Source of the DNA: Candidatus Omnitrophota bacterium
GTDB taxonomy: Bacteria; Omnitrophota; Gorgyraeia; Zapsychrales; Zapsychraceae
Length of the DNA: 64,000 bases
Assembly (NCBI GenBank): GCA_029261055.1
Contig: JAJDCA010000068.1
Location: 133,275-197,274 of the forward strand
Direction: 5' to 3'
Part shown: in pieces, positions 28,503-52,702 of the stretch
Numbering within the stretch: the stretch's first letter is position 1
Layout of the letters: the number at the start of each line of letters is the position of its first letter
Position numbers and translations under genes: made by a program
The notes under the pieces: generated by a model
Database searches by the model: none
What the model saw: the letters and a program-made list of their open reading frames with translations, nothing else
What the model was told of the DNA's origin: nothing

Positions 28503-28512
28503 ATTTTCATTG

Positions 28513-29520: not shown

Positions 29521-29527
29521 TTTCATC

Positions 29528-30572: not shown

Positions 30573-30573
30573 A

Positions 30574-31203: not shown

Positions 31204-31215
31204 TTTATTTCCCCT

Positions 31216-33111: not shown

Positions 33112-33130
33112 ATTCTTTCCTTTCAATAAA

Positions 33131-33428: not shown

Positions 33429-35084
33429 CTATCGCCGAAGGCTTCCCCCATATGGGGTTTTAATTTTAAATTTTTTACTCAGACCTATGATTTCCTGAAT
33501 AAGCGCCTCATTATTTTCATCGGATTCTAAAAGGCTAATCAAGTGGTAAATTTTATTAAAGGCCCAATTACGGGCAATGGATTCGTCTCCGCCCATAGAC
33601 TCTTCAAAGCTACCTTTAATAATAAATTCATTGACCTTATTATCTCCCTCACCCAAAATCTGCCAGGCAAAATCTTGTTCATCGGTGTACTTGCCGTACA
33701 ATGTAAATTCTGTATTACGGAAAAGATCTGGTAATATTTTTGGAAAAATATTGTCGTCATTCAATCCACTTACATGATATTTCAATTTTAACAATAAAGG
33801 ATCTTTGATCTTTTCGTACATGCTGGACAAATTTCTTCCGATAAAATGTGATCGATAGGAATATTCAGACCAACCTCGATTCTTGTAGGCAATAAAATCT
33901 AAAAGATACCGGTTAACACTCAACCCGCCACTAAAAGTAAAAATAGAAACCTGCCCATTATTCAACGCGGAAATATCATTAATAAGTTTGCGCGAATCGG
34001 TTACACCCCGCGTCGGGTGTCCATCACTGAGAAGAATAATGTAACTCGGCGACTTTATTTCTTCATCCGCAATACTCTTGTAAAGAGCATTGTACGTGTC
34101 TGTTTTTTCACCGGACGTAAGATTCTCAACAAACTTTAAAGCTTCCTGCACATTTTCATCGGTCGGCTCGACCGATGAAGATCGAAATTTATCAGTCGTT
34201 TTCTTAAAGGCTAATATGTTAAATGTATCTTGTGGATTCAGACGATTTAAACTGTATTTAATCCCTTTTTTAAATTCATCCAAACGCTCTCGCTGCGTAC
34301 TCAATGAACAATCGACCAAGAAAATAATTTCTTTCGGTATGGTTGCAAGACGCACACCATCGTCACCGACTTTAATACTGATTTTGTAATACTTTTGCCC
34401 ATCCTCAAGATCTTCATACGTAAACAAAACACTATCGAAAAACCTTTTGAGATTCCCAAGGCGTCTTTTTCGTTTAATAGTTCCTTTGCCTTTTGCCGTT
34501 TCATCCCCTTTTGAAACAGATTCGGAAATAGCCGTCTTTAACTGTGGTGTAAACCCCGGCATTTTGTCAAAGAAATCACCCTCTTCATCCCCGGCATCAA
34601 AAACTTCGTCTGAACCAGCCGTAATATCCATATCCGGTTGTTCGGCAATCTTAACAAGCGCTTCTCTCGTTTTTCGCTTGGCTTTTGGCATCAAATCCTT
34701 GTAATTTTTTCGATCCTCTTCAATCAAGTCAATCTCTTTACGTTTAGAAATAACAGCAGGTTCTTTGACCTTTGCCACTGGTTTATGCAGTTCTGTTTTC
34801 TGTTCAACGTCTATCTGCGCATCAATGGAGGCAATGGTCAACCCTGAATTGGAAAGTGGGCTCTGAAATCTGAGCATCTCTACATACGTCTCTTTTTCTT
34901 TAGCTTGAACTTTGCGGGCAGGCAATGTTGTTTTAAGACTTTTAATCCGAAATAATTTCTTAGATTGAACAACCGGCGTGTAAATAGCTTTAATATCCAT
35001 ATGCGTTGAGGATACAAAAAAAAGCCCGTGGAGCAACAAAGAAATACCGATAGAAAAAAATATTGTTTTTTGATTTCGATTCAT
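33429..35084 (-). CDS. membrane-anchored von Willebrand factor A (vWA) domain protein (551 aa; N-terminal TM, Lys/Glu-rich spacer, vWA, C-terminal domain)
   Basis: MIDAS motif IIFLVDCSLST...; later ...ILLSDGHPT...; N-terminal hydrophobic anchor. BatA/BatB-like architecture. Confidence 0.6.
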   Translation of the reverse strand: MNRNQKTIFFSIGISLLLHGLFFVSSTHMDIKAIYTPVVQSKKLFRIKSLKTTLPARKVQAKEKETYVEMLRFQSPLSNSGLTIASIDAQIDVEQKTELHKPVAKVKEPAVISKRKEIDLIEEDRKNYKDLMPKAKRKTREALVKIAEQPDMDITAGSDEVFDAGDEEGDFFDKMPGFTPQLKTAISESVSKGDETAKGKGTIKRKRRLGNLKRFFDSVLFTYEDLEDGQKYYKISIKVGDDGVRLATIPKEIIFLVDCSLSTQRERLDEFKKGIKYSLNRLNPQDTFNILAFKKTTDKFRSSSVEPTDENVQEALKFVENLTSGEKTDTYNALYKSIADEEIKSPSYIILLSDGHPTRGVTDSRKLINDISALNNGQVSIFTFSGGLSVNRYLLDFIAYKNRGWSEYSYRSHFIGRNLSSMYEKIKDPLLLKLKYHVSGLNDDNIFPKILPDLFRNTEFTLYGKYTDEQDFAWQILGEGDNKVNEFIIKGSFEESMGGDESIARNWAFNKIYHLISLLESDENNEALIQEIIGLSKKFKIKTPYGGSLRR

Positions 35085-35189
35085 TTTAATTAAACCTCGC
35101 TATCGCTCAGCGACTCTTAGTCATCAGTATTTTTTACTGATGTCTGAAGACTGATAGCTGATGACTAACATTTAAATTCCTAAACATTC

Positions 35190-37589
35190 TTACTCTTCAC
35201 TTAAACTCTTAACTTTTCCCTTCGCCTGTTCTGCAACATGGCTTTTTTCATACATACTAAGAATTTCGGTAAAAACTTTTAAAGCTTCATCATTCTTTTG
35301 TAATTGTTCAAAAATTTCCCCAGCCCTAAAAAGCGACTCTGGACAATAATACTCATCACCGTACAATACGGCGACCAACATGTAATATTTTGTGGCCTCC
35401 TCAGGATTTCCCTTCATATGCTCGACGTTGGCAATCTCAAATCTGGCCCGCATAGCAATAGTTGTATCCTCAGCATAATCAAGTAAGGCTGCGTCAAATT
35501 CCTGCCGCGCTTTGTCCAGCTCATTCATCTTAATCAAACTTTCCCCTTTACCAATATGTGCCGCTCCGCCTTTGATCCCGACCTCAGAACTAGAAAGAAC
35601 AATATCGTAGTATTCCACAGCGTCTGCATACTGCATCAACCCCTTGTAAGCCTCTGCCCTTAAATAAGCTATTTGCATTATCACATCTTCGCTCTGTTCC
35701 CCCTGGTTCACCTTCCCTAAAATACGCAAGACATCATCAAATTGTTTTTCCCCTAAATACACATCCGTAATCCAAAGATATGTATTGATATCTAAATCTG
35801 CTTTATCAAAATCTGTAATAATCTTGTCAAAGATTTTAATCGCTTCATCATCTTTTTTTTGATTCAAATAAATCAACCCTCTATTCTTAAGAGAAGAATA
35901 ATATCTCTTCGTATCATTTTCTTGAGGCGTAATTTTTTCATAATAGGTTAATGCCTCATCGGGTTGCTCTGCTAACTGTAGATTGTACGCGAGAAGAAAA
36001 TAAACATCTTCAATACGCTTACTATTTGAATGCTCCTTCTCGTACCGTTTTAAAATATCAACCGCCATGCCATGCCTCTTTGCTGCCGAATAAAGACCCC
36101 CCAAATGAAATAACACCTTCTCCGTACGCTTATCTTTCGGGAATGTCAGCAAATACATTTCGCTATGCGCAACCGCTGTTTGAAGATTACCCAGCTCTTT
36201 ATGGATTAAAATTTCATTAAAAAGAGCTTCTTTTTGCTTATCCTCATCCTCACCTTTTTCAAAATATTGATAAAACAAATCGCCAGCTTCTTTTACTTTG
36301 CCTAAAGAATTTTGGGCATGCGCCATTCCATAAATAGCATCCTGCGCATATTTTGACTCCGGAAATTCTGTAGCTAATTTTTGATATGCTACAAAAGCAG
36401 AATCAAAGGCTTTCATCCCATAATGGGCTTCGCCTTCAAGAAAAATAAGCTGTGCTTTATCCACGGTAGCATCCAGACTATTCGATTTTATGAGCGTAAG
36501 GGCTTCTTCAAATTGCGCTGCACGCACTTTAACCTCAGCCTTTTTGAGAAGAATCTTTTGTTGGTCTTCAGCCGGCAACGAAGGCATGGCGGATATTTTT
36601 TCCAGAAGCGCCAACGCCTCATCAGAACGTTTAAGTTCGGCATAAGCACTCGCCACAGTAAAACGAAGACTAAAAAACTTTTGATCCTCCGATACAATAC
36701 CTTGATACCCCTGGTAACTTTCAATCAAGGCCTCATATTTAGCCAAATTAAATTGCGCTAAAATAAGATTAGTGAAAGCATCCTTAGCCATAGCAAGATC
36801 AGCATACTTCTCTAAGAATTCCTGAAACGTCTTCACCGCATAGGTGTAGTTCTTTGTTAAAAACTGTGCCTCACCTTTTTTGTACAAAACCAAACTTTTT
36901 AAGTCAACCGTCTCAGCAACTTCATAGGCCCTGTCATAATAGTCTATCGCCTTGAAATTTTTTCCTTCATGTGCAAACATATCTCCCAGCTCAAGCAAGG
37001 CATGGATGGTCCGCTTACTGGTCTTTAACACACTTTCCGTTTTTTCAAAATACTCCATCGCCTTGGCAATTTCCCCCTGAGCCTTGTATGTCTTACCTTT
37101 GTAAAAATACAATATTTGGATAAAATCTTTATCGAGACCATCGATAGTAACAGCCTCAAAGGAAGATAAAGCTTGCGAATATTGACCCGTAAAAAAATAA
37201 CACTGCCCCAGGCGTAACATTGTTAAAATCTTTTTAGAAGATTCAGGAAACAATATTTTGTATTTCATGTAAGCCTTAATGGCCTCAGCGTAGGTCTTAG
37301 AAAAAAATAAACTTTCTCCAATCGCAAAATAGGCCTCATGCAAATCCGGACTATCTGAGAAAAGCTTAATAAATTTCTCATACTCCGCAATCGCCATCGG
37401 ATAAAGTTCACGTTGAAAAAGTCCATGTGCAAAGTCAAGCTGCTCAATATCCTTAGCCACTTCTTTAACCTCGCCGGCACTAACATTTTCATTTGCAAAA
37501 ATCGGAGATACTCCAAAAGAAACCATACCCACAACAAATAGCCCCGTCGCCAGTATCATCAAATATTGCTGTCTTATTTTCTCTTTCAT
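35190..37589 (-). CDS. large TPR-repeat protein (799 aa) with N-terminal signal/anchor
   Basis: About 15 recognisable TPR-like 34-residue repeats (AxxYxxxG/A..A...F pattern) throughout. Confidence 0.65.
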   Translation of the reverse strand: MKEKIRQQYLMILATGLFVVGMVSFGVSPIFANENVSAGEVKEVAKDIEQLDFAHGLFQRELYPMAIAEYEKFIKLFSDSPDLHEAYFAIGESLFFSKTYAEAIKAYMKYKILFPESSKKILTMLRLGQCYFFTGQYSQALSSFEAVTIDGLDKDFIQILYFYKGKTYKAQGEIAKAMEYFEKTESVLKTSKRTIHALLELGDMFAHEGKNFKAIDYYDRAYEVAETVDLKSLVLYKKGEAQFLTKNYTYAVKTFQEFLEKYADLAMAKDAFTNLILAQFNLAKYEALIESYQGYQGIVSEDQKFFSLRFTVASAYAELKRSDEALALLEKISAMPSLPAEDQQKILLKKAEVKVRAAQFEEALTLIKSNSLDATVDKAQLIFLEGEAHYGMKAFDSAFVAYQKLATEFPESKYAQDAIYGMAHAQNSLGKVKEAGDLFYQYFEKGEDEDKQKEALFNEILIHKELGNLQTAVAHSEMYLLTFPKDKRTEKVLFHLGGLYSAAKRHGMAVDILKRYEKEHSNSKRIEDVYFLLAYNLQLAEQPDEALTYYEKITPQENDTKRYYSSLKNRGLIYLNQKKDDEAIKIFDKIITDFDKADLDINTYLWITDVYLGEKQFDDVLRILGKVNQGEQSEDVIMQIAYLRAEAYKGLMQYADAVEYYDIVLSSSEVGIKGGAAHIGKGESLIKMNELDKARQEFDAALLDYAEDTTIAMRARFEIANVEHMKGNPEEATKYYMLVAVLYGDEYYCPESLFRAGEIFEQLQKNDEALKVFTEILSMYEKSHVAEQAKGKVKSLSEE

Positions 37590-38005
37590 TCATCCTTCCT
37601 TGTCGCAAACGAAATATTCCAAATGTTCGCTTTCGCGCAAGCGTCTAAAACGTTCACTACGGATTCATGGTATGTTTTTTCATCCGCGCGAATAATCACC
37701 GGCTGACTCGGAAATAAAGATGCAATTTTCTGCAACATTGCTTCTAATTCCACAATGGCTAACTTTTTTTGATTAACGATCACAGCACCATCTTTGGCCA
37801 CATTAATAATAATTTCGCCAGGACTTCTAACCGCTTCTTTAGCTTCTTGCGCCTTGGGTACGCTGATACTGATTTCTGTTTCCTGTTGATTAAAGATCGA
37901 AAGCGTCATAAAAAAAACTAATGTCAAAAACACAATATCGATCAACGGTGCCATTTGAATTAAAGGTCTTTGTTTTTGATATTCGGATATGGTAAATCGC
38001 GCCAT
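37586..38005 (-). CDS. ExbD/TolR-family protein (second copy)
   Basis: 139 aa, N-terminal TM (PLIDIVFLTLVFFM), ExbD-like domain. 4-nt overlap with the downstream TPR gene. Confidence 0.75.
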   Translation of the reverse strand: MARFTISEYQKQRPLIQMAPLIDIVFLTLVFFMTLSIFNQQETEISISVPKAQEAKEAVRSPGEIIINVAKDGAVIVNQKKLAIVELEAMLQKIASLFPSQPVIIRADEKTYHESVVNVLDACAKANIWNISFATRKDE

Positions 38006-38763
38006 TATTTTTCTCCTAATTCTTCGACAAGCTTAACAATATCACCGCTGTAAGTTTCGACAGCATCAGAAATTTCCTGAACCCTTCCTCTAAAATATGT
38101 GTAAAACAACATGACTGGAATCGCAACAATTAAACCAGCGGCGGTTGTGACCATAGCTTTAGAAACACCCCCAGCCAACAAAATAGGTTTAACTACCGCG
38201 GACTGAAAAGCAATCACATTAAACGCCTGAATCATGCCCAAAACCGTTCCTAAAAGACCGATCAATGGGGCTACAGCGGCGATGTCAGCCAAATAACTAA
38301 TATTTTGCCAAAGACGTGCCACTTCTTTTTGCGCACAATTTTCCATGGCCTCACGCGCGAAAACCTTACCTCTTCCCTTCTTTTCTATTCCAGCAATAAC
38401 AATTCGGCTAATCAAATTATGTTTACTGGAATAACACTGCCCCTTTACGCTACGCTCTTCGTTATCTTCTAATTTCTGAATAATTTCTTCCGTAAATTTT
38501 TGTGGAAGGATTTTACTCATTTTCAATGTCATAAAATTATAAACAATAAAAGATAAAGACACAAAAGAAAGAACCCCCAAAACAATCATGATGAAACCGC
38601 CGGTTTTAATTGTCTCCCACAGAGTCATCCCTTCTTTAGTCTGCTCTAAAGATTCAATGTACGGCTGCACATCTCCCGTCGCGCTAAAGACCTCTTGCCC
38701 TCCGACAAAAAATAGCAATCCCCCTAAAACTAAAACCATTAAATTTTTAAAACTCATCCTCAA
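38005..38763 (-). CDS. ExbB/TolQ/MotA-family proton channel (second copy, with N-terminal periplasmic extension)
   Basis: Signal/anchor, then three TM helices with ...APLIGLLGTVLGMI... and ...AMVTTAAGLIVAIP... conserved stretches. Confidence 0.75.
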   Translation of the reverse strand: MRMSFKNLMVLVLGGLLFFVGGQEVFSATGDVQPYIESLEQTKEGMTLWETIKTGGFIMIVLGVLSFVSLSFIVYNFMTLKMSKILPQKFTEEIIQKLEDNEERSVKGQCYSSKHNLISRIVIAGIEKKGRGKVFAREAMENCAQKEVARLWQNISYLADIAAVAPLIGLLGTVLGMIQAFNVIAFQSAVVKPILLAGGVSKAMVTTAAGLIVAIPVMLFYTYFRGRVQEISDAVETYSGDIVKLVEELGEK

Positions 38764-38875: not shown

Positions 38876-41800
38876 CTAATAAATATTCAACCTAATTTCT
38901 TCTTTCACAGATGGTGTAGGGCCATTAATCTTATGAACATGCGTGGCTCTTTCCAAAAATATTACCGATTGTTTCTCATGCCCCAGCGCCTTCAGACTTA
39001 ATCCCAAATGATAATACGCTTCCGCATGATGTGAATTCTTATTAAGACATTCTTGAAAATAAAAAACAGCTTTCTTAAATTGTTTAAGCTTGAATGCCGT
39101 AATACCTAAATAATAATAGAAAAAATCTTCTTCACTAAACCCTGACGATGTAGCATACTCCGCAATACGCACGACTTCCGCATAATTTTTAAGTTGAAGT
39201 TGGCTTAAAATAAGCATCTTGTAACAGTCTCGATAACCTTCTTTTAGTTGATTTTTTAATTGTTCCCTATCCGTTATTCTTTGCGCCGATAAAATAGGCC
39301 GATACACCTTAGACTCCTGAACAAACTGCGAAGTTTTTCCTACATCGCTCGTCACAGCTTTACCAAGAGAAACGGCAGCTTCTTGATATTGATCATTTTT
39401 AAAATACACAACGCCTAAATTGTACCAGAACCAAAAGAAATCAGGATTTAAATAAATAGCCTTATTGTAATAATCTATCGCTTTATCATAATTCCCTAAA
39501 TGGTAATGACAAAAACCGAGAAGGCCGTAAGCTGCAGACCGTGAAGGCATGTATTGATTAATTTTTTCATAATATTTAACCTGCTTTTTTAACTCTTCCT
39601 TATCAAAGTTTTTTTGATTCTTAAAAACATAAGCTAAGTAATCAGGATTAACATAGAATTCATTTAATTCTTTTACTTTATTCTGCGCCTTTACCTTTTT
39701 TTTGTCAAATACAGCATACGCTATCAAAAACATCACCACATACAATATCACCACACGCTTGCCAATACAGGCAACCGCACGAATAACCTTATTATTTCTC
39801 CATTTCGATGATCCTATTTTTCCCGCCACACCCTCTGATTCCAATAAAACGTCTTCACTCTCTTCTTCCACTAAAGCTGCAGACTTTTTCCGCATAACAT
39901 AACTCTTCCCCGCAAGAAAAAATAGAGCTAAACAAACGCCAAGAGACACAAAGATATTAACATAATTCAAAGTATGCCGCCAAATCGATCCAAAACGCAA
40001 ATGCACGACATTTTTACCAGCGGGAACCCATACCCCTTTAAACGCAATATTGGCCCGCCAGATAGAAGTTTTTTCCCCGTTAACAAAAGCATTCCACCCT
40101 CTATGGTAAACATCATTGTAAACAAGAAATTTTCGCGTATCAAAATCAGTTTCAAATTTAATAAAATTTACACCGTAACTCACAAGAGCTTCGTCTGACA
40201 AAAACTGTGGATGGGGATCAACAGGGGCCACATCTTTATTCAGATAGTGTTCCTGATGGTCGTCAAAAACAAAAGCTACATTTTCATATTGTTCAAAAGC
40301 CCGTTCAATCCGTTTATGGTCTAATTGCTTCTCATTGACAACTTCGACACGATCATAAACCCGTAACTTTGCTCTTTTAAGCGCCTCGATAGATTTAGAA
40401 TTAAAATCTCTGTGTAACGAATCCCACCATCTCATCCCAAAATAAATAGGAAAAGTTTTTTTAATCTTAGGCTCTAAAGGGTCGATCTTAAGATTTTTTA
40501 TTTTTTCCTCTACGGAGAATAGATACTCTTTACTTTCAAAAGGATTTTCTAAATATGGCATTAAATAAGGACCATATCGAAAATTTTGTCGGTCAATTTT
40601 AGTCGCATTGTCCTGGTAGTAATGAAAAACTTGCAAAGGTTGCATCACAATAAGAATAAATAAAGGAAAAATAAAGAAAAATACGCCTTTTTTACCACTC
40701 CAGACGTAATACATAAAATACAAACAACTTAAAAAAAGTACGCCATATGTCGTGACAATAGCATTTTTCTGAGCGTAAACCATAAAGGCAACTAAGACGT
40801 GCAGAAAAATAAGCACAGCTAAACAACCATATTTGGCCTTTTTAGTCTGAGGACGATAGTGGATAAGTAAACGAAATTGTTCGACCAAAAATAATATGGT
40901 CACAGGCAACATCAATAACCACAAAAAATTGGTTAAATTACGAAAATATCTAAAAAAGAAAACATGTTTATGTAAAAAAGCAAAAAAAGGTGCTTCAGTA
41001 GAACTTATTAAAAAAGTTCCAAACCCTAAAAGAGCAAAGAAAATAAGCCTTCGATTTACAGAAAGACCCAGACCAAATACAAAAATCAGCAAAGCAAATA
41101 ACGGGACATACAACATTTCAAGGTTTGCTTTATGTAAATCAGGAAAAATTTTCTCAAATTGAAGCTTCGTAATAATCCCCGGTTCTGTGACCCTACGCGT
41201 TGACACCTCCAAAACATTCATATCCAACAGCCCAACCTTGCCAATAAAATCAGCCGCCTGTCGACCCGCGAGGACAAAATCGCCCTTTCCTCCATCCAAA
41301 TAAAAAAGAACCCCTGGAAGAAGAGACAAAATAAAAGCCACCAAACAACAACAAACAAAAATTTTATTACTCTTCAAAAACTGAAAACACCGCAGAATAA
41401 ATTCCTTTAAATACCGAAAATACACAAGCGCAAAAACAATCAAAAACGACAAAAAAATCGTCAAAAAGTAAAAAGGAATGTATGTCGAGATGATGAGCAT
41501 TGAACAAAACGTCAACCCGAGAAAATTCTGTTTCTCCTGTTTTTCAAAAAATGCCATCAGAAAATAAAAAAACCACACAAAGGGAACGAACAAAAGAATA
41601 ATGTAGTTAAAAAAAAGTAAGGTTCCTAAACTAGAAAATAATAAAAGTAAAAAAGCTGTTATGGCTGCATAGGTATCACGAAAAATACGCCTTGCTAAAA
41701 GGTAAAAACCTATCATTCCGATAAAAAAATAAATCGCTAAAAACCAAAGGTATCCATAAGTGTACGGGATATCAGCGCTATTGTTCGCTGCCCTATCCAC

Positions 41801-42103
41801 AAAACAGTCAAAGAATGCCTCTAAAGGAATGATTAAAAAAAAGAAAGGATTCGGGGCTCCGATCCTACGCATAAAAAATTCGGCAGGGACGCCTCCTTGC
41901 CGAGTAGATTCCCACATAGGATAAATACCTCGACGGATATTTTCTATGTAAAAATCAATATGTTCGTAATAAGAAATGGCATCTGCAACAAGAGGAGATT
42001 TATTGAAGAAATAATTGCGGAACGAAAATGCCCACAAAACAAAAGAAAAAACGATCAAAACCCAAATGGCTTTGGAATGATTGGAATGGAAAGACAACTT
42101 CAT
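38876..42103 (-). CDS. 1075-aa polytopic membrane protein (~700 aa, at least 14 TM) fused to C-terminal TPR module; GT-C/TMTC-like glycosyltransferase candidate
   Basis: Hydrophobic N-terminal two thirds. C-terminal TPR block paralogous to 3054..4808 and 12092..13099. 4-nt ATGA overlap with the upstream PKD gene. Confidence 0.5.
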   Translation of the reverse strand: MKLSFHSNHSKAIWVLIVFSFVLWAFSFRNYFFNKSPLVADAISYYEHIDFYIENIRRGIYPMWESTRQGGVPAEFFMRRIGAPNPFFFLIIPLEAFFDCFVDRAANNSADIPYTYGYLWFLAIYFFIGMIGFYLLARRIFRDTYAAITAFLLLLFSSLGTLLFFNYIILLFVPFVWFFYFLMAFFEKQEKQNFLGLTFCSMLIISTYIPFYFLTIFLSFLIVFALVYFRYLKEFILRCFQFLKSNKIFVCCCLVAFILSLLPGVLFYLDGGKGDFVLAGRQAADFIGKVGLLDMNVLEVSTRRVTEPGIITKLQFEKIFPDLHKANLEMLYVPLFALLIFVFGLGLSVNRRLIFFALLGFGTFLISSTEAPFFAFLHKHVFFFRYFRNLTNFLWLLMLPVTILFLVEQFRLLIHYRPQTKKAKYGCLAVLIFLHVLVAFMVYAQKNAIVTTYGVLFLSCLYFMYYVWSGKKGVFFFIFPLFILIVMQPLQVFHYYQDNATKIDRQNFRYGPYLMPYLENPFESKEYLFSVEEKIKNLKIDPLEPKIKKTFPIYFGMRWWDSLHRDFNSKSIEALKRAKLRVYDRVEVVNEKQLDHKRIERAFEQYENVAFVFDDHQEHYLNKDVAPVDPHPQFLSDEALVSYGVNFIKFETDFDTRKFLVYNDVYHRGWNAFVNGEKTSIWRANIAFKGVWVPAGKNVVHLRFGSIWRHTLNYVNIFVSLGVCLALFFLAGKSYVMRKKSAALVEEESEDVLLESEGVAGKIGSSKWRNNKVIRAVACIGKRVVILYVVMFLIAYAVFDKKKVKAQNKVKELNEFYVNPDYLAYVFKNQKNFDKEELKKQVKYYEKINQYMPSRSAAYGLLGFCHYHLGNYDKAIDYYNKAIYLNPDFFWFWYNLGVVYFKNDQYQEAAVSLGKAVTSDVGKTSQFVQESKVYRPILSAQRITDREQLKNQLKEGYRDCYKMLILSQLQLKNYAEVVRIAEYATSSGFSEEDFFYYYLGITAFKLKQFKKAVFYFQECLNKNSHHAEAYYHLGLSLKALGHEKQSVIFLERATHVHKINGPTPSVKEEIRLNIY

Positions 42104-43842
42104 CGAATGGTAAATACCGGTACTGGTGTTGTGTTCACCTCAGCCACAAAACTTGATGAAGACTGGCTACAAGAGGTGCCTGAATTATCATCTACGGTTA
42201 ATGTAATATTGTACGTCCCACTTTTCACATACGTATGCCCAACGGCAACACCGTTGGTTTTGGCACCATCGCCAAAATCCCAAGAATATGTCAAGTGGTC
42301 TCCATCGGGGTCACTTGATGCAGAAGCGTTAAACCGGGTCGCAACTCCGACACAACAGGCTAGATTTGGACCGATGTCTGCCACAGGGGGTGTATTAACT
42401 TTAATCGTAGCCGCAGCAGTAGCCGTAGAACAAGCTGAACCTCTTCCATCATCCACAATCACGCTAACCCGGTAATTACCGCCCTGCTTGTAATCATGGG
42501 CCACTTTCGCACCCCCATGTAAAATGGTGCCGTCGCCAAAGCTCCAATAATACTCTAAAGCATCGCCATCCGGATCAGAGGCTGAGGTTGCATCAAAGAA
42601 AACCTGATTCCCCAAACACACCGACTCAACTGTTTTAATGGAAACCGAAGGGGCTGCATTTACCGTTACCGTCCGGGTATCTCTTGATGGCGGACACATG
42701 GTATTCAATTCATTAGCTATTGAAACGCTGGCCTGATATTGACCGGGTTTCTTGTATCGGTAGCTCACTTTTAATCCTTCTGCTGACTTTCCATCTCCAA
42801 AAAACCACTTCGCTGACAGGGTTCCTTTTTTGTAAGCATACGAGCTCGTCCCATCAAAAAGAACATCTTCACCGCTACAAACCGTCACATCATCACCGGC
42901 ATGGGCTTCCGGAGCTTTATTTAATTTAACAGTCACAAAATCTACGCCTGTGCCACATTCCAAATTTGTATTATCTTTTACAATAAGCTTTGCATCGTAA
43001 TTGCCTAACTGAGAATATTTATGTGTTACCTTAACCCCTGTGTCTTTATGCCCATCTCCAAAATCCCACAAATAAATTAATGTGTCATTATTCGCATCAC
43101 GCGTCCCGGAAGCATCAAAGGATACCGTCATATCTTTTTCAGCACTAACACATTTAAAAACTTGTTCTTCACCCGCTTCGGCAACCGGAGGCTCATTCAC
43201 ATTAATAACCTTCTCTACCGTGTGACGGCTGCAGTCGGTATTTGCTTTATCATCTACAGTTAAAGTCACCTTGTATTTACCGCCCCGCACAAAAGATTTT
43301 GTTACACGTTTTTTTCCTTTTAATAGAGTGCCATCTCCTAAATCCCATTCATAAGCTAATTTTCTACGCCCATCATCGTAACTATCCCCGGCATCTAAAA
43401 CAATAGATTGATTAACACAAGCAAATTCATCCGCAGAAAAAGCCGCAAAAGGAGGAATATTCGCCCTTACTGTTTGAGTACTTTTAGCTACACTACATTC
43501 CAACCCGGAGTTATCTGCAATACTTAACACCACTTTGTAATCTCCTGATTTTTCGTAGACATGTGTAGCAACGGGTTGTGTACTTGTGTTGCCGTCTCCA
43601 AAATTCCAGAAAAAAGAAATCTCCTCTTTATCCGGGTCATACGAACTGCTGGCATCAAACGTAAATTCATTACATTTTAAAGAAGTGATGGGTTGACTGG
43701 AGACCCCTTGATTCCGCTTGCTTACTTGCGCAAAGGCTGCAGTGTGAAGAGTTAAAAATGTACTGCTTAAAAATAAAATTACTAAAAAATTATTAAATAA
43801 ATTTAAATTGCGTTTCATAAAAACCTCTCTGCTATTTTTCAT
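42100..43842 (-). CDS. secreted protein with six tandem PKD domains
   Basis: Signal peptide. Six repeats of W(x)FGDG...H.Y...G.Y.V.L.V.D (e.g. FWNFGDGNTSTQPVATHVYEKSGDYKVVLSIADNSG). Confidence 0.75.
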   Translation of the reverse strand: MKNSREVFMKRNLNLFNNFLVILFLSSTFLTLHTAAFAQVSKRNQGVSSQPITSLKCNEFTFDASSSYDPDKEEISFFWNFGDGNTSTQPVATHVYEKSGDYKVVLSIADNSGLECSVAKSTQTVRANIPPFAAFSADEFACVNQSIVLDAGDSYDDGRRKLAYEWDLGDGTLLKGKKRVTKSFVRGGKYKVTLTVDDKANTDCSRHTVEKVINVNEPPVAEAGEEQVFKCVSAEKDMTVSFDASGTRDANNDTLIYLWDFGDGHKDTGVKVTHKYSQLGNYDAKLIVKDNTNLECGTGVDFVTVKLNKAPEAHAGDDVTVCSGEDVLFDGTSSYAYKKGTLSAKWFFGDGKSAEGLKVSYRYKKPGQYQASVSIANELNTMCPPSRDTRTVTVNAAPSVSIKTVESVCLGNQVFFDATSASDPDGDALEYYWSFGDGTILHGGAKVAHDYKQGGNYRVSVIVDDGRGSACSTATAAATIKVNTPPVADIGPNLACCVGVATRFNASASSDPDGDHLTYSWDFGDGAKTNGVAVGHTYVKSGTYNITLTVDDNSGTSCSQSSSSFVAEVNTTPVPVFTIR

Positions 43843-43900
43843 AAAATCCCTTCATAATCTTGCCCCAGTATACCATAAAATTTTTAAAGTCTACTTAAAA

Positions 43901-45184
43901 TTATTTTAAAATTCCTTCAACATTATCGTCTAAAATTTTTTGAAATTCAACGGGGCACACTTTATTTGTTAGGTCTTGTGCGGCAAGGACATTGACGCGT
44001 ACATAATTATCCGTCAACCCTGTCCAGGCGCCTTTTTTCTGCTGTTCAAAGAGTACATTTTGTGTTGTGCCGCATAAAGAGGAATAAAAAAGATGACGTT
44101 TGCGCTGACTTAATGTACGTAAAATTTTACTGCGCTGACTAATTAGAGAAGAAGGAACTTCTCCTGCCAGCTTTCTTCCCTTAGCCATATTCCGCTTTGA
44201 ATAGCTGAAAACGTGAAAATACTGCATCGGTAAATCTTTGATCTGCCTAACGGCCCCCTCAAAAAGAGACTCTGTTTCCCCTGGAAAACCGACAATAATG
44301 TCCGTACCTAAACAAATTTGGGGAATAGCCGCATGAGCGGCCGTAATCCAATCCTTAAATTGGTCAAATGTGTAATTGCGTTTCATGGACTTTAGAATAA
44401 CATCCTGACTACTCTGTAAAGGAATATGCAAATGCCGACACAACTTGGTTCTCCCGGCCATTTTGGCAATCAATTTCTCAGGAATCGTTGTGGGTTCAAT
44501 TGATGAAATACGGATCCTTTCGACACCTGAAATCTGCTCTAAAGATTCAATGACATCCATCAAAGTAAACCCCTTGTAGCCGTACGTGCCCACATTAATA
44601 CCTGTAATGACCAATTCTTTGTGCCCGGCTGCTGCTAAGATCGTCGCTTCTTTAGAAATATCCTCAAACACGCGACTTCGTGCTCGACCACGCGCATAGG
44701 GAATCTCACAAAATGAACAAAAAAAGTCGCACCCATCCTGAATTTTAATATTAACCCGCGTATGTTTACGATCAATACCTGCCATTGGAATCGTAAAACT
44801 GTCTTTCCCTATTGGAGGCGTAATGACTTCCGGCGGAGCGTCTAAGTCTGCATCTTTGAGAATATGGACAATGTCCATTTTGCGGGCATTGCCCACCACC
44901 CAACGGACATTCGGTAACTTGGTCAATTGTTCGCGTTGAACCTGAGCCTGACATCCCACAAGCGCAATACGGGCTTTGGGATTAATACGGTTCACTTTGT
45001 TCACAAGACGTCGCGTGTCGGCGTCGCCATTTTCCGTGACTGTGCAGGTATTAATCACCACCACATCGGCTGGCTCCTGAAAATCTACAATACGATATCC
45101 CACCGACTCAAACGTCCGCTCAATCACCGCCGTCTCACTCTGATTCAAACGACAGCCTAATGTGTAAAAAGATATTTTATTCAT
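43901..45184 (-). CDS. MiaB-like tRNA methylthiotransferase (MtaB/RimO family radical SAM)
   Basis: N-terminal MTTase domain (FYTLGCRLNQSE), radical SAM CDFFCSFC, C-terminal TRAM-like region; 427 aa fits MtaB. Confidence 0.7.
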   Translation of the reverse strand: MNKISFYTLGCRLNQSETAVIERTFESVGYRIVDFQEPADVVVINTCTVTENGDADTRRLVNKVNRINPKARIALVGCQAQVQREQLTKLPNVRWVVGNARKMDIVHILKDADLDAPPEVITPPIGKDSFTIPMAGIDRKHTRVNIKIQDGCDFFCSFCEIPYARGRARSRVFEDISKEATILAAAGHKELVITGINVGTYGYKGFTLMDVIESLEQISGVERIRISSIEPTTIPEKLIAKMAGRTKLCRHLHIPLQSSQDVILKSMKRNYTFDQFKDWITAAHAAIPQICLGTDIIVGFPGETESLFEGAVRQIKDLPMQYFHVFSYSKRNMAKGRKLAGEVPSSLISQRSKILRTLSQRKRHLFYSSLCGTTQNVLFEQQKKGAWTGLTDNYVRVNVLAAQDLTNKVCPVEFQKILDDNVEGILK

Positions 45185-45191
45185 AAATTAA

Positions 45192-45260
45192 TGGGCATGA
45201 TGACTCCTGCCCCTACGAACGACTCGCCCCACCCTGCGTACGGGCATGATTCATCATGCC
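45192..45260. repeat. 65-69 bp palindromic element (gggcatgatga.tc.tgcccctac ... gtacgg.catgattcatcatgccc), copy 1
   Basis: Near-identical copy at 46589..46651 in the same orientation; the two copies bracket gene 45263..46549. Confidence 0.7.
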
Positions 45261-45262
45261 CA

Positions 45263-46549
45263 TTATTGATTAATTATTCCTCTAATCCACTCAATCCCCT
45301 TTGTAATCCCCGCACACGTCGCCTTCACACAAGAATCAAATGGCGCATAGGACGTCTTACCTTTAGTGTGGTACTCTTCTATTAAGTGGATATTTTCTTC
45401 CATTGAAGGGTTTTCTAATCTTTCCTCAATGGCAGCTTCTTTCCCTAAATATTCTTCCCCATAAAATTTTATTTCTTCCCGCACGTACGTCCCATCTTTC
45501 TGTTTTACAGAACACAAGATTTTCACGGCCCGTTGAATCGGAAAGGCCAACGTCCCCTCTAACCCATTGCGAATAATGATGATACCAGGGAAACCTGCTC
45601 GTTCGGCAATAGTCAACATTTTTTCACCATATGGAGGATGAAAGGCCGAGGCAATAACAATTTGGGCATTCACAGGATTCACAAACCGTTCCAATGTAGA
45701 CATAAACGGACGTTTGACAGTTTGCCGCCGTAGATCCACCCACCGGTCCATGGCCTGGGACATGTCCAATTGATGAAGATACCAACCAAAGGATGGTTTA
45801 GCTTTTGCCAACCCCTTCCTACTCTTTAATCTCAATGTCGCATCCAGATCCTGTTGCGCATCTACAAAACCCGACAAATTATTTCCAAACTTTGGCCCGC
45901 TATTGCGCCCCATCAAATTCACCACGCGGTAACCCAAACCTTGCACATGACGTGCCAATAGCGGCGTGACAAAATACGAACGTTTCACACCATCAAAAGG
46001 TTCTGCAATCTGAACAATCGGTTCGCCGTCTGGAATTTCTTCCTGAAAAGGTAATTCAATCGTTGTCTGCAAACTCGCTAAAAGCCCTTCAAATTCATCC
46101 GGCGTTTCGTAACGGACACGCAAAACACTTGCCGCCAATCCTCTCAATCCATCACCAGGCAATGCGGAAAAAAGAAAATCCCCCAATTGTTGAGATGTAT
46201 CCTTGTCTAAAGTTTCTTTTTTTAAAATACGCGCACACAAAGCTTGGATATTAGCCGGGGCATCCGATGCAAGAGCTTTGACAAAAATAGAGTAATCTTC
46301 AAACGCTCCCGCAGGAAAAGCATCAGCCAAAAATTTTTCCTCTTCGGTAACACCCTTAATAAATAAAGCCCCAAAAAAAGCTCCCTTAGCTGCGGCCAGC
46401 ACATGCCCCTCTCTAAACTCACCCAAAATACGCTGAACAAGTTCCGCCGAAAGCGATTTACTCCCGCGCTTGCCCACACCAATTGTCTTTATCCCTTCGA
46501 CGACGGCTGATTGTAAATTTTCTTGAAACATGGGGCCTATTTTACGCAT
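45263..46549 (-). CDS. TrpD-like (glycosyl transferase family 3 fold) protein lacking the canonical GTGGD motif; function unknown
   Basis: N-terminal helical domain LSAELVQRILGEFREGHVLAAAKGAFFGALFIKGVTEEE resembles the TrpD/YbiB N-domain. No obvious catalytic GTGGD. Confidence 0.35.
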   Translation of the reverse strand: MRKIGPMFQENLQSAVVEGIKTIGVGKRGSKSLSAELVQRILGEFREGHVLAAAKGAFFGALFIKGVTEEEKFLADAFPAGAFEDYSIFVKALASDAPANIQALCARILKKETLDKDTSQQLGDFLFSALPGDGLRGLAASVLRVRYETPDEFEGLLASLQTTIELPFQEEIPDGEPIVQIAEPFDGVKRSYFVTPLLARHVQGLGYRVVNLMGRNSGPKFGNNLSGFVDAQQDLDATLRLKSRKGLAKAKPSFGWYLHQLDMSQAMDRWVDLRRQTVKRPFMSTLERFVNPVNAQIVIASAFHPPYGEKMLTIAERAGFPGIIIIRNGLEGTLAFPIQRAVKILCSVKQKDGTYVREEIKFYGEEYLGKEAAIEERLENPSMEENIHLIEEYHTKGKTSYAPFDSCVKATCAGITKGIEWIRGIINQ

Positions 46550-46588
46550 ATTAATGGATAAAGCAAATAATTTAATAAAGACCTTTAA

Positions 46589-46651
46589 AGGGCATGATGA
46601 ATCATGCCCCTACAAGCGACATTCCCCGTACGGTCATGATTCATCATGCCC
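46589..46651. repeat. 65-bp palindromic element, copy 2
   Basis: See 45192..45260. Confidence 0.7.
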
Positions 46652-46671
46652 TAATATTGACACCTACCCAT

Positions 46672-46828
46672 GAAATTGCCCCGTGGGGCAAAAACACAAC
46701 TTAGACAAACATCTACATCTAAGAAATACAGATGCGCGTACGAACTTTCTAAAAAACTAAAGCTCCGTCGCTATTACTGTAAGTTATTACTACGAATACA
46801 TTCCTTAGTTGTGAAATTGCCCCGCGGG
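46672..46828. repeat. two copies of a 20-bp palindrome gaaattgccccg(t/c)ggggcaa, 135 bp apart, upstream of dusB
   Basis: 46672-46695 and 46806-46828. A third partial gaattgcccc lies at 46951 just before the dusB ATG. Confidence 0.6.
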
Positions 46829-46961
46829 GCAACTTCATATCTACATAAAATAAATAAATATTTGTAAATATTTAGCAGATAGCGTGAAAAATGGCTTAGA
46901 CAATCCTCCGAGAATTTGTTTACGGTTGCAATTCTCTACACATTCCATTAGAATTGCCCCC

Positions 46962-47921
46962 ATGAAAATCGGTAATATTGATATTCAAAATCCCCTTGCC
47001 CTGGCCCCCATGGAAGACGTGTCAGATACGGCTTTCCGATTAACGTGTAAACGTTTTGGCGCTGACCTGCTGTACACGGAATTTACCAGTAGCGACGCCT
47101 TGATCCGCGACATCCCTAAGGCCATTGACAAAATCAAAGTCACCGCGGAAGAACGACCTGTTGGCATTCAAATATTTGGAGCCAATGAAGACACCATGAA
47201 AGAAGCGGCTCAAAAAGCCGAAAATTTTCATCCTGATTTTATTGACATCAACTGCGGATGTTGGGTACGCAACCACGTGGCCCGTGGACAAGGCGCAGCC
47301 CTTCTCAAAAATTTGCCTAAAATGGAAAGAATCGTTAAAGCTACGGTCGATGCCACATTTTTGCCTGTCACCGTAAAAACCCGCCTGGGGTGGGATCACG
47401 ACAATATTGTCATCTGCGATGTTGCCAAAATGGTTGAACAAGCCGGCGCCAAGGCTCTTACGGTGCACTGTCGCACACGAAACCAAGCCTACAAAGGAGA
47501 CGCCGATTGGAGTTGGCTGGAAAAAATTAAAAAGGCAACGAACATCCCTGTCATTGGTAATGGAGATGTCACATCTGCGGAAGATGCGAAAAAAATGTTG
47601 GCAACCGGCTGCGATGGGGTTATGATTGGACGCGGTGCCATTGGGAATCCATGGATTTTTAAACACATTAAACATTACCTCGCAACGGGTAAACACCTTC
47701 CGGAGCCTACATTAAGAGAAAGAATTGAGGCGTGCATTACACATTTAAAATTAAGTGTTCAATACAAAGGGACTAAAAACGGAATCATTCCATTCCGAAA
47801 ATATTACGCAGGTTATTTTAAAGGTATTCCGAACTCAGCAAAACTAAGGGCTGACCTGATGCAGCTGGTAGATTTGGAAAAAATTACTGAACGCCTTAAT
47901 CAATTTTTAGAAAAACCTTAA
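46962..47921 (+). CDS. tRNA-dihydrouridine synthase (DusB-like)
   Basis: MKIGNIDIQNPLALAPMEDVSDTAFR matches the Dus N-terminus; FMN/TIM-barrel motifs (INCGC, GNGD) present. The track's earlier start is likely spurious. Confidence 0.8.
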   Translation: MKIGNIDIQNPLALAPMEDVSDTAFRLTCKRFGADLLYTEFTSSDALIRDIPKAIDKIKVTAEERPVGIQIFGANEDTMKEAAQKAENFHPDFIDINCGCWVRNHVARGQGAALLKNLPKMERIVKATVDATFLPVTVKTRLGWDHDNIVICDVAKMVEQAGAKALTVHCRTRNQAYKGDADWSWLEKIKKATNIPVIGNGDVTSAEDAKKMLATGCDGVMIGRGAIGNPWIFKHIKHYLATGKHLPEPTLRERIEACITHLKLSVQYKGTKNGIIPFRKYYAGYFKGIPNSAKLRADLMQLVDLEKITERLNQFLEKP

Positions 47922-47946
47922 ACAGACCTCGTAGGTCTGTTTAAGG
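47916..47946. terminator. REP-variant hairpin aaacagacctcgtaggtctgttt between dusB and the lpd-like gene
   Basis: 11-bp stem with a cgta loop; same cctcg.agg core as the REP family. Confidence 0.5.
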
Positions 47947-47949
47947 TTC

Positions 47950-49374
47950 ATGCATATGAAAAAATACGACGTTATTGTCATTGGTTCTGGAGGCGGGTCA
48001 AAAATTACATCGCCGGCAGCACGACTTGGATTAAAGGTCGCCTGTATTGAACGTTCTGCTCTCGGTGGTACTTGCCTTAACCGCGGATGTATCCCCTCGA
48101 AAATGCTCATCCATCCGGCGGATGTGGCCACGGCCATTAAAGATGCCGGTAAATTCGACATTGCGGTGAATCCATTTTTTGAAGTTAACTTCCCTAATCT
48201 TGTCCAACGCATTTCCCAAACAGTAGACAAAGATTCCTCCAGCATTGCGGCCGGTTATGCACGTAATCCGAATATTGATTTCTATCCTCATGAAGCCAAA
48301 TTTGTTGCTAACAAAATCATTGAAGTCAACGGGGAACAACTCACGTCAGATAAAATTTTTATTGCCGTTGGCGCCCGACCACATATTCCGTCTATTGAAG
48401 GCTTAGCGAATACACCTTACATGACAAGTACTGAAGCTTTGCGCAACACAGATTTGCCTCAAAAAATGATTGTCATCGGCGCAGGTTACATTGCCGTGGA
48501 ACTCGGACATGCTTACGGAGCACTCGGTACCGAAGTGCACTTTCTCGTGCGCAGCCGATTCTTACGTCATGAAGACAGTGAAGTCGCGGCAGAATTTACC
48601 AAGGCCTTTTCCGAACGTTATAATGTTCATATGCAGGCTGTGCCCCAACGCGTTCAATATGCTAATGGTCAATTTTCACTTATTTACCAAAATCAAGACG
48701 GACAGCCTCACAACATTACGGCCGATGCTCTTTTAGTGGCTACTAGCATCACATCTAATACAGACAGTTTAAATTTAGAAAGTACCGACATTGCCGTCGA
48801 TGACAAAGGTCTCATCCAAGTCAATGACCGTTTAGAAACGAATGTTGCAGGTGTTTACGCCATGGGGGACTGTGTCGGTAATTATTATTTTCGACATACG
48901 GTTAATTTCGAAGGCGAATACCTTTTCCATCGTGTTTTTGGCAACGCGCCTGATGAAGCAATCCAATACCCTCCCGTACCTCATGCCGTTTTTTCGTACC
49001 CACAAATTGCTGGCGTTGGAAAAACCGAAGACGAACTCAAACAAGAAGGCATCGACTACGTCGTAGGCCTCAACCACTACCGCCAAAGTGGCATGGGTAT
49101 GGCCCTGCTCTCTGATTACGGATTTTGCAAAATCCTGATTGAACGCAACACTCGAAAAATTCTTGGCGCACACATCGTTGGCGACGAAGCCTCAAATATG
49201 ATTCACATGCTCATTGCCTTTATGAACAAAGAAGGAACACTAGACGATCTCTTAAACATGATTTACATCCACCCCGCGCTACCGGAAATTGTACGTAATG
49301 CAGCACGGAAAGCGGAAATAAACTGGTTAGAAGTAGAGAAACAAGAAACAAAGAAGCAAGAAGTAAAGAAATAA
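47950..49374 (+). CDS. pyridine nucleotide-disulfide oxidoreductase (dihydrolipoyl dehydrogenase family)
   Basis: YDVIVIGSGGGS FAD motif; redox-active GGTCLNRGCIPSK; central NAD motif MIVIGAGYIAVELG; 474 aa. Confidence 0.75.
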   Translation: MHMKKYDVIVIGSGGGSKITSPAARLGLKVACIERSALGGTCLNRGCIPSKMLIHPADVATAIKDAGKFDIAVNPFFEVNFPNLVQRISQTVDKDSSSIAAGYARNPNIDFYPHEAKFVANKIIEVNGEQLTSDKIFIAVGARPHIPSIEGLANTPYMTSTEALRNTDLPQKMIVIGAGYIAVELGHAYGALGTEVHFLVRSRFLRHEDSEVAAEFTKAFSERYNVHMQAVPQRVQYANGQFSLIYQNQDGQPHNITADALLVATSITSNTDSLNLESTDIAVDDKGLIQVNDRLETNVAGVYAMGDCVGNYYFRHTVNFEGEYLFHRVFGNAPDEAIQYPPVPHAVFSYPQIAGVGKTEDELKQEGIDYVVGLNHYRQSGMGMALLSDYGFCKILIERNTRKILGAHIVGDEASNMIHMLIAFMNKEGTLDDLLNMIYIHPALPEIVRNAARKAEINWLEVEKQETKKQEVKK

Positions 49375-49379
49375 AAGGC

Positions 49380-49475
49380 AAAAAAATAAGAAGCACAGGA
49401 ATAAGAAGCAAAGATTAAAAACAAAAATTACTTTTTTACATCTTGCATCTCTACACCTCTGCTTCTTGCCTCTTA
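49380..49475. repeat. imperfect inverted-repeat element (gaagcacaggaataagaagcaaaga ... tctctacacctctgcttcttgcctctta); related copy at 63775..63865
   Basis: Direct sequence comparison of the two loci. Confidence 0.5.
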
Positions 49476-49509
49476 CTTTTCTAGCTCTTTAACTTTAATT
49501 CTAAAAACT

Positions 49510-50238: not shown

Positions 50239-50308
50239 TCGCTCGTCGCCAGTGGCTCGTGACTCGTTTTTTTTTTACGAGCGACGCATCACTAGCGACG
50301 AGCCACGT
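50238..50308. terminator. palindromic element with T-run (gtcgctcgtcgccagtggctcgtgactcgTTTTTTTTTTacgagcgacg...cgacgagccacg); family shared with 53800..53893
   Basis: Inverted repeats around a T10 tract directly after the ABC ATPase stop. Confidence 0.55.
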
Positions 50309-50313
50309 TAATT

Positions 50314-52633: not shown

Positions 52634-52702
52634 CCGTACACAAACCTCGGGGGTTTGTATTGGTTAACCCGTACAAACCCCCGAGGCTTGTTTACGGTTA
52701 AT
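52634..52702. repeat. REP doublet (gtacacaaacctcgggggtttgta ... gtacaaacccccgaggcttgtttac) flanking the 3' side of the RAYT gene
   Basis: Inverted pair of 24-nt REPs. Confidence 0.75.

Follow-up and report, generated by a model that had tools for sequence, protein, structure and literature searches.

Glycosyltransferases of the membrane-embedded GT-C fold that also carry tetratricopeptide repeats (TPRs) are already known from eukaryotes and, as TfpW, from bacteria, and proteins of the YfhO type are known as extracytoplasmic transferases. The eukaryotic TMTC proteins have an 11-helix ArnT-like core with a DUF1736 loop between helices 7 and 8 (PMC7801869). TfpW of Pseudomonas aeruginosa, a pilin arabinofuranosyl transferase encoded after pilA, combines a GT-C with a TPR part (bioRxiv 10.1101/2020.04.19.049825). 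YfhO of Bacillus subtilis has 13 helices and a large extracytoplasmic domain between the last two (PMC5836110). The YfhO-type enzymes of Bacillus, Staphylococcus and Listeria are extracytoplasmic and modify teichoic acids (PMC5836110, PMC8035078), and enzymes of this type can also O-glycosylate proteins, in Ser/Thr-rich, disordered extracytoplasmic regions, as described for the streptococcal PgtC2/Pgf enzymes (PMC12041528). Here we have analyzed a stretch of 64,000 nucleotides from a Candidatus Omnitrophota bacterium (GenBank assembly GCA_029261055.1, contig JAJDCA010000068.1, positions 133,275 to 197,274), called the window from here on. In it, a gene for a protein of 1075 amino acids (aa) joins a YfhO-like enzyme part to a TPR part, and it overlaps the end of a gene for a secreted protein with six PKD domains (PKD6). 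We have found that two genes which form a conserved module in relatives, one for an enzyme and one for its TPR partner, are fused in frame in the 1075-aa gene. The parts of the locus are as follows.

38876-42103, minus strand: fusion protein of 1075 aa, YfhO-like enzyme of predicted GT-C fold plus membrane-anchored TPR partner (open reading frame, homologues)
40607-42103, minus strand: predicted GT-C transmembrane core, aa 1-499, about 13 helices (AlphaFold2 model, Foldseek, invariant columns)
39989-40606, minus strand: predicted periplasmic domain, aa 500-705, with a terminal beta-sandwich (strands 640-704) (secondary structure, PF09586 match)
39707-39988, minus strand: fusion junction, with the last enzyme helix (about 707-735), a charged, predicted cytoplasmic linker (about 736-775) and the TPR anchor helix (about 776-797), drawn from hydropathy and from comparison with the split genes of locus L001 and the fused gene of locus L013
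38876-39706, minus strand: predicted periplasmic TPR domain, aa 800-1075, and stop codon (TPR_1, homology to separate partner genes)
42100-42103, minus strand: ATGA stop/start overlap from PKD6 to the YfhO-like/TPR gene (sequence reading)
42100-43842, minus strand: PKD6, secreted protein of six PKD domains, 580 aa (open reading frame, PKD_4 matches)

The fused gene and its two-gene relatives

To place the gene among its relatives, one genome per species was scanned. This gave 79 loci, often several from the same metagenome-assembled genome (MAG); loci of relatives in other assemblies are numbered L001 and so on within this analysis. The 79 records are labelled Candidatus Omnitrophota or Omnitrophica, 'uncultured Planctomycetales' (TPA assemblies) or, for a single record, just 'bacterium'. 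Open reading frames (ORFs) were called in these loci and searched with the window proteins, and YfhO-like genes were counted when they reached at least 600 aa (n = 83). Behind 79 of the 83, at a distance of no more than 320 bp and on the same strand, lies a gene of 210-340 aa homologous to residues 796-1075 of the window protein, and the junctions in these 79 pairs mostly overlap or abut. The other four are one fused gene (L013, 1137 aa), two genes at a contig end and one gene without a partner (L014). The TPR part is therefore a separate downstream gene in 79 of the 81 informative relatives, and it is on this ground that the window gene is recognized as a fusion of a two-gene module. Fusion to this TPR was seen in only 3 of the 222 family proteins retrieved.

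The homology extends to the details of the junction. The TPR part of the window protein matched the partner ORFs of relatives with phmmer E-values down to 9e-65. The closest homologue (P0002, from the same sample, 43% identity) is split, its stop overlapping the start of the partner in a different frame, and the split point falls at the position of the charged linker of the window protein; the split junction of L001 maps there likewise. Pairwise distances between enzymes and between partners were correlated over the 79 pairs (r = 0.75, a value reached by none of 2000 permutations), and the nearest neighbour was identical for enzyme and partner in 32 of them. Such a pattern is in line with enzyme and partner duplicating and diverging together as a unit, and shared species history also contributes to it. 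Tandem arrays of the form enzyme-TPR-enzyme-TPR were found in L003, L005, L015, L020, L047 and L051.

The repeats of the window protein begin at about residue 835 (TPR_1, E 1.5e-22). Members of the partner family have one N-terminal anchor helix and a conserved core, residues 844-909 in the numbering of the window protein, with Y844, G863, G870, A875, F890, N895, G897 and A909. A word-indexed search with the TPR part gave four specific matches only, and the family was defined from the 79 loci instead. The preliminary description of this stretch, made from its letters, had not noticed the separate partner gene. In the literature searched we have found no description of a near-obligate split pair of enzyme and TPR protein, nor a paper that mentions both YfhO and Omnitrophota; the spread of such TPR proteins over several membrane-protein families and their multi-copy presence in Omnitrophota were likewise not found described. 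For annotation, the rule that follows is that a TPR gene of 210-340 aa behind a YfhO-like gene of about 700 aa belongs to the same unit.

As for the enzyme part, the full 1075-aa protein matched only TPR repeats in Pfam and NCBIfam. A search with residues 1-740 retrieved 158 homologues, nearly all of 660-770 aa; the organism names shown for them were all Candidatus Omnitrophica/Omnitrophota or metagenome, and many carried a precomputed match to Pfam YfhO (PF09586). The same Pfam family was matched at E <= 0.01 by 45 of 65 aligned members (best 3.5e-8), and when 1.84 billion proteins were searched with the family profile, 524 cluster representatives scored E <= 1e-30. We have seen this YfhO-like family only in MAGs labelled Candidatus Omnitrophota or, in some TPA assemblies, 'uncultured Planctomycetales'. 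A 1120-aa protein above the Pfam YfhO cut-off (E 2e-13, 50 bits) is encoded directly after a YfhO-like/TPR pair at 12791-16153 of L071; since this locus holds both, the more canonical and the distant YfhO types co-occur.

The AlphaFold2 model of residues 1-740, built on the family alignment, has a mean predicted local distance difference test score (pLDDT) of 90.6 and a predicted TM-score (pTM) of 0.92. When it was compared with the PDB by Foldseek, all 31 of the 31 best matches were GT-C glycosyltransferases (best E 9.4e-4), among them AglB, STT3, PglB, AftD, EmbA/B/C, DPY19 and Pmt4. The match probability was 1.00 for most of the leading ones, at TM-scores of only about 0.3 and sequence identities of 9-19%. 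The top matches were of the oligosaccharyltransferase (OST) type, ArnT was not among the 50 PDB matches listed, and no transporter fold was among the 31 best. A sequence search of solved structures with the family profile gave nothing meaningful. By its predicted fold the enzyme part appears to be a distant YfhO-like GT-C glycosyltransferase, and the GT-C-like character that the preliminary description had read from the polytopic N-terminus is borne out at that level.

Hydropathy and the model agree on 13 helices with a large outside domain (500-705) between the last two, the final helix being 707-735. Loop charges obey the positive-inside rule throughout the 1075-aa protein and, with hydropathy and helix count, suggest that the N-terminus and the linker 736-775 are cytoplasmic and that the 500-705 domain and the TPR part are periplasmic. 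The alignment of 65 sequences contains 17 invariant columns, including D41, W64, N85, R281 and R388. The first periplasmic loop covers residues 33-113, and D41 stands at the start of its first helix, a position that we take, in part from PMC10214176, to correspond to the catalytic Asp of PglB, ArnT, PMT1 and TMEM260.

Several known enzymes share parts of this layout. The best structural matches, the OSTs AglB, STT3 and PglB, also have 13 helices, a cytoplasmic N-terminus and a C-terminal extracytoplasmic domain, although identity in the structural alignments is 11-14% and TM-scores are about 0.3. The YfhO proteins of Firmicutes (YfhO of B. subtilis and S. aureus, Lmo1079 of L. monocytogenes, streptococcal PgtC2, PgfM1 and PgfM2) have the predicted GT-C fold and the 13-helix topology in common with the window protein, as well as the weak Pfam YfhO match over its terminal beta-sandwich. 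They use undecaprenyl-phosphate sugars made by GT2 enzymes of the CsbB/GtrB/PgfS type, and a GT2 of that type is encoded in the window. However, the sequences are very distant, a GT2 gene is usually not adjacent to the Omnitrophota genes, the host of the window belongs to a diderm candidate phylum without teichoic acids, and the obligate TPR partner is not a described feature of the YfhO systems of Firmicutes.

In the TMTC1-4 (GT105) and TMEM260 proteins a GT-C membrane domain is likewise followed by TPRs on the non-cytoplasmic side, which is the predicted side in the window protein too, and their TPRs are believed to pick out substrates with a folded beta-sandwich (cadherin, IPT domains). This order of domains is the part of the TMTC architecture, as proposed in the preliminary description, that stands. 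The rest does not, since the 1075-aa protein gave no match at E <= 0.01 to PF08409 (DUF1736), PMT or PMT_2. The differences from TMTC and TMEM260 are the lack of DUF1736 and of DUF2723/PMT_2, 13 helices with a beta-sandwich, best matches of the OST type, two extra helices and a cytoplasmic linker between enzyme and TPR, and a TPR that is a separate polypeptide in the relatives. That the window enzyme is itself a TMTC is ruled out by the absent DUF1736, the 13 helices with a beta-sandwich and a single Asp in place of an acidic pair. TfpW resembles the window protein as a bacterial GT-C enzyme with a periplasmic C-terminal TPR; its gene lies directly downstream of that for its protein substrate, and its donor is a polyprenyl-phosphate furanose, to which the cluster of Glf and GT2 genes beside the fused homologue of L013 may be compared. 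It differs in being ArnT-like, with 11 helices and a DDX motif, and in having pilA as a neighbour in one species after another, unlike the PKD adjacency of the window, which is not conserved.

Proposed reaction, donor and acceptor

We think it reasonably probable that the fused gene encodes a two-part periplasmic transferase for lipid-linked sugars, composed of GT-C and TPR parts. What the analysis shows is the fold class, the invariant Asp, the near-obligate pairing, the rare fusion and the lack of linkage to PKD genes. A cytoplasmic GT2 enzyme would load the sugar onto polyprenyl phosphate and the lipid-linked sugar would be flipped across the membrane. The GT-C part (aa 1-735, with D41 as the catalytic-type Asp) would then transfer the sugar to a periplasmic acceptor, and the TPR part (aa 776-1075, anchored by a single helix) may bind the acceptor or hold the complex together, by analogy with TMTC, TMEM260 and TfpW. 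One gene of the window could serve the donor side.

8938-9942, minus strand: GT2 with two C-terminal helices, of the PgfS/ArnC/GtrB type (NCBIfam matches)

Over its full length the product matched both PgfS (E 2e-65, below the cut-off of that model) and ArnC (E 2e-33), which makes it a candidate polyprenyl-phosphate-sugar synthase and a possible donor supplier. GT2 genes adjoin YfhO-TPR modules in L042, L036, L047 and L012. In L013, genes for GT2, Glf, a fusion similar to a second, 584-aa TPR fusion of the window (described below) and the YfhO-TPR fusion stand in a run.

There are points that weigh against this proposal. The nearest donor-type GT2 gene lies 29 kb from the fusion gene, only about 8 of the 79 loci have a GT2 gene within 10 kb, and no match to a GtrA-type flippase was obtained among the scanned ORFs of the window (mainly those of at least 150 aa). 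D41 is a single invariant Asp in the motif S-D-A-x-S-Y-Y, with no DxD or DE pair; where the preliminary description had suggested looking for an acidic pair in the first loop, the 65 sequences share a single invariant Asp only. The window protein scored 20.1 bits against PF09586 (E 2.4e-4), over residues 655-704 only, with a cut-off of 28.5 bits, and because the score is below this gathering cut-off we call the enzyme YfhO-like and not a formal member of PF09586. The full-length model leaves the TPR part at pLDDT 26-85 (pTM 0.74), values at which the geometry between enzyme and TPR is unreadable; full-length MAFFT alignments misplaced the TPR rows or, when anchor fragments were used, the enzyme rows, and the full-length model was made with enzyme rows only. 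Finally, throughout the YfhO-like family we infer the activity, the donor and the acceptor, and the same holds for the role of the TPR.

The acceptor need not be a protein. In an alternative that we regard as somewhat unlikely, the module builds or decorates an envelope glycan, with paralogous GT-C enzymes acting in series like the mycobacterial Emb/Aft enzymes and the TPR serving as a scaffold for polysaccharide handling or export. Several features are in line with it: the paralogues within single genomes and the six loci with tandem arrays, the presence of AftD and EmbA/B/C among the structural matches, the operon-like run of L013 in which Glf (UDP-galactofuranose supply) accompanies a GT2, and the teichoic acid polymers that are the targets of the characterised YfhO enzymes of Bacillus, Staphylococcus and Listeria (PMC8035078). 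On the other hand, genes for polysaccharide export or polymerization are not consistently adjacent to the modules, whose neighbours vary and include GpsA, a TonB-dependent receptor, AsmA and PMT_2-like proteins, and as to a glycan or a protein acceptor the present evidence fits both alike. This alternative differs from the proposed transferase only in the acceptor and in the scaffold-type role of the TPR, and the two partly overlap.

If the two-part transferase is correct, GT-C enzymes can gain acceptor selectivity from a separate TPR subunit that is occasionally fused to them. The module would then offer a natural system of split and fused forms for probing the role of the TPRs in TMTC, TMEM260 and TfpW, and Omnitrophota, a phylum known here only from MAGs, would possess a multi-copy machinery for envelope glycosylation.

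The run of L013 has a counterpart in the window, where overlapping genes for a GT2 of 239 aa, Glf (UDP-galactopyranose mutase) and the 584-aa fusion occupy 3054-6637. In L013 the same GT2/Glf/584-like run is found at 6409-9990 and the fused YfhO-TPR gene comes directly after it. The 239-aa GT2 has no membrane helix and resembles ArnC and polyprenyl-phospho-sugar synthases. The run hints at a lipid-linked galactofuranose donor.

PKD6 and the other flanking genes

PKD6 ends in CGATGA and the ATG of the same ATGA starts the 1075-aa ORF, so that the two ORFs (580 and 1075 aa) and their overlap at 42100-42103 were found exactly as the preliminary description gave them. The true start of PKD6 is possibly its second ATG, at 43818, which has a better purine-rich stretch upstream. 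Pfam PKD_4 matched the protein in six stretches (E 1e-125), the motif W-x-F-G-D-G recurs six times at a spacing of about 87 aa, and the N-terminus is a hydrophobic, signal-like segment. Its Ser+Thr content of 18.1% is the highest among the 51 tabulated ORFs of at least 122 aa on which our statistics for the window rest (mean 10.9%, sd 2.6). A signal-bearing, Ser/Thr-rich protein of six PKD domains, as described before, is therefore present. The Ser and Thr residues are distributed through the folded domains; the composition of 30-residue windows revealed no long Ser/Thr-rich disordered stretch, the richest window holding 13 Ser/Thr at the C-terminus.

The preliminary description had paired the two proteins as enzyme and substrate: the 1075-aa protein would be a dedicated O-glycosyltransferase for PKD6, coupled to it through the ATGA, and its TPRs would recognise the folded beta-sandwich domains. 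There is evidence that fits. The ATGA overlap is confirmed, and the second start has no evident Shine-Dalgarno-like stretch ahead of it, as expected for coupled translation; PKD6 is secreted and tops the window in Ser+Thr; enzymes with GT-C and TPR parts are known to act on folded beta-sandwich or pilin substrates (TMTC and TMEM260, PMC7801869, PMC10214176; TfpW after pilA); and protein O-glycosylation by YfhO-type enzymes exists (PMC12041528). However, overlapping junctions are common in the window, where 15 of the 42 junctions between genes of the same strand show an overlap (exactly 4 nt in 5 cases), and the minus strand carries 42 of the 51 ORFs. Because overlap and shared strand are the local norm, the overlap alone is weak evidence for a functional pair. 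PKD6 also has none of the disordered, Ser/Thr-rich regions at which YfhO-type enzymes are known to glycosylate proteins.

Comparison with the relatives speaks more directly against the pairing. A PKD gene upstream on the same strand was found for 0 of the 83 YfhO-like genes (79 loci). PKD genes occur near relatives only in L004 and L009, on the opposite strand, in a subtilase and a PA14 protein. The genes upstream of the YfhO-like relatives vary, and include GpsA (8 loci), a TonB-dependent receptor (7), PMT_2-like proteins and AsmA. The large neighbours of the modules were also inspected for beta-sandwich surface proteins, but proved to be sugar-nucleotide enzymes, a further YfhO, and the subtilase and PA14 type of protein.

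Seen from the side of PKD6 the result is the same. Its orthologues in Omnitrophota, of about 560 aa and 55-65% identity, are better conserved than the enzyme, whose best relative has 44%. In 7 of 7 orthologue loci MtaB stands between a divergent Dus gene and PKD6, in some of them accompanied by a small inserted gene, and the genes 3' of PKD6 are mutually unrelated (ThiS/ThiF, DMT, Band_7, SSB, radical-SAM), with a YfhO-like gene in 0 of 7. L088 is syntenic with 43842-49374 of the window. The MAG GCA_964541845.1 has both a PKD6 orthologue (L082) and a YfhO-TPR fusion (L013), but on different contigs. We conclude that PKD6 is most likely the last gene of a conserved block that merely abuts the YfhO-TPR gene. 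A conserved partnership of enzyme and substrate finds no conservation from either side (0/83 and 0/7), and we judge a dedicated O-glycosyltransferase for PKD6 to be improbable. The tempting call of PKD6 as substrate is thus removed as unsupported, and the fusion points to the two-gene module. Nor can a bacterial GT-C plus TPR enzyme beside its substrate gene be called undescribed, as it had been, given that TfpW after pilA already is such a case (bioRxiv 10.1101/2020.04.19.049825).

The conserved block itself, at 43842-51084 of the window and in L082-L088, comprises ABC-2 transporter genes, a lipoamide-dehydrogenase-like gene, the divergent Dus gene, a gene for a 410-430-aa protein with weak family matches only, MtaB and PKD6. 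MtaB is directly or nearly directly 5' of PKD6 in 7 of 7 loci, an association of a tRNA methylthiotransferase with a secreted PKD protein. The inserts between MtaB and PKD6 vary among MAGs: L087 has a CheR gene there, and the others include genes for a CAP12/PCTIR TIR-domain protein and a prepilin-type N-methyl protein; inserts lie at 7937-8809 of L082, 5178-5735 of L085 and 5488-5877 of L088. About 5.6 kb 3' of the PKD6 orthologue, a 612-aa protein has PMT/PMT_2 and TPR matches (13204-13572 of L085, 11917-12285 of L086) and represents another type of GT-C plus TPR fusion in Omnitrophota.

On the other side of the fusion gene, a unit of its own at 33429-38763 encodes an ExbB/TolQ-like protein, an ExbD/TolR-like protein, a 799-aa YbgF-like TPR-repeat protein and a 551-aa VWA protein. 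One might suppose that the 1075-aa protein is a non-enzymatic, structural or energy-coupled component of the envelope that works with these ExbB/ExbD, TPR and VWA proteins, the genes being co-directional, the gap to ExbB being 112 bp and the downstream cluster being rich in TPR and Tol-like parts. We hold this to be very improbable. Co-directionality is the rule in the window, ExbB/ExbD homologues are beside 0 of the 83 relatives, and the 799-aa TPR and VWA genes are likewise not beside them; in L008 homologues of the latter two are 7 kb from the module. The predicted GT-C fold and the invariant loop Asp would moreover point to catalysis. The TPR and VWA pair of the unit recurs at 90-2854 of L008. 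At about 26700-33126 the window has a second set, ExbB/ExbD/TonB, accompanied by genes for a TonB-dependent receptor and for B12-type ABC uptake.

The TPR family beside other membrane proteins, and further features of the window

The TPR family is not restricted to the YfhO-like enzymes. The window contains two further members, each together with a different membrane protein.

3054-4808, minus strand: second TPR-family fusion, 584 aa, with a membrane domain of about 400 aa and a TPR part, adjoining Glf and a GT2 gene
12092-13099, minus strand: stand-alone TPR-family member, 335 aa, anchored by a single N-terminal helix (alignment with the partner family)
13116-14558, plus strand: polytopic membrane protein of 480 aa without Pfam match, divergent to the stand-alone TPR gene

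The membrane domain of the 584-aa protein has 8-10 helices and an invariant W-x-D-E after helix 1. It is homologous (hhalign probability 100%, E 2e-51) to a family of about 400 aa with 5-9 predicted helices, in which W-x-D-E is invariant too and whose genes stand directly 5' of otherwise orphan TPR genes in eight loci. The divergent pairing of the 335-aa TPR gene with the 480-aa gene recurs in at least four other MAGs (L048, L021, L040 and L045). The 480-aa family has an invariant Asp, D33, just after the first helix (L-A-N-D-A-I-A-Y).

Neither the 400-aa-type membrane family, to which the 584-aa protein belongs, nor the 480-aa one gave a match in Pfam, and hhalign found no relation of the YfhO-like profile to either of these membrane domains. 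Compared with PMT_2-like neighbours, the 400-aa family gave a weak match (hhalign, probability 25%) and the 480-aa family nothing. From the loop motif and this weak match one may guess that both membrane families are GT-C enzymes. Tentatively, the TPR family could then be a dedicated, exchangeable subunit for acceptor recognition that serves at least three enzyme families in Omnitrophota, the YfhO-like, the 400-aa W-x-D-E and the 480-aa one. If this is true, the adaptor would represent a bacterial form, split in most cases, of the design of TMTC and TMEM260, and would belong to a large, so far unseen system for periplasmic or surface glycosylation in which a genome encodes several enzyme-adaptor pairs and each pair serves a set of acceptors of its own.

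A few other features of the window and of the loci may be mentioned. Between 14947 and 25938 of the window there is a long run of cobalamin genes, for salvage and for the lower ligand, with BtuR/CobO, CbiB/CobD, an aminotransferase, CobS, CobT, CobU, a CobC-like phosphatase, a BluB-like nitroreductase, CbiZ, CobQ and CbiA; no cobalamin riboswitch was detected in the window at Rfam gathering thresholds. Rfam and tRNA scans of the window gave no matches, and promoter and terminator scans found sites no more numerous than in shuffled sequence. GC skew is negative in all 2-kb bins from 1 to 64000 (-0.06 to -0.33), and the whole window seems to belong to a single replichore that has a strong strand bias. 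At 66-9743 of L019, directly 5' of the YfhO-like gene, a frame of 3225 codons contains phosphoglucomutase, histidine-phosphatase and Glu/Leu-dehydrogenase domains, and is either a very long multi-enzyme protein or the read-through of several genes. At 52698-53444 of the window, between the genes for ComEC and leucyl-tRNA synthetase, there is an ORF of 248 aa with a Y1 transposase domain of the IS200-like type.

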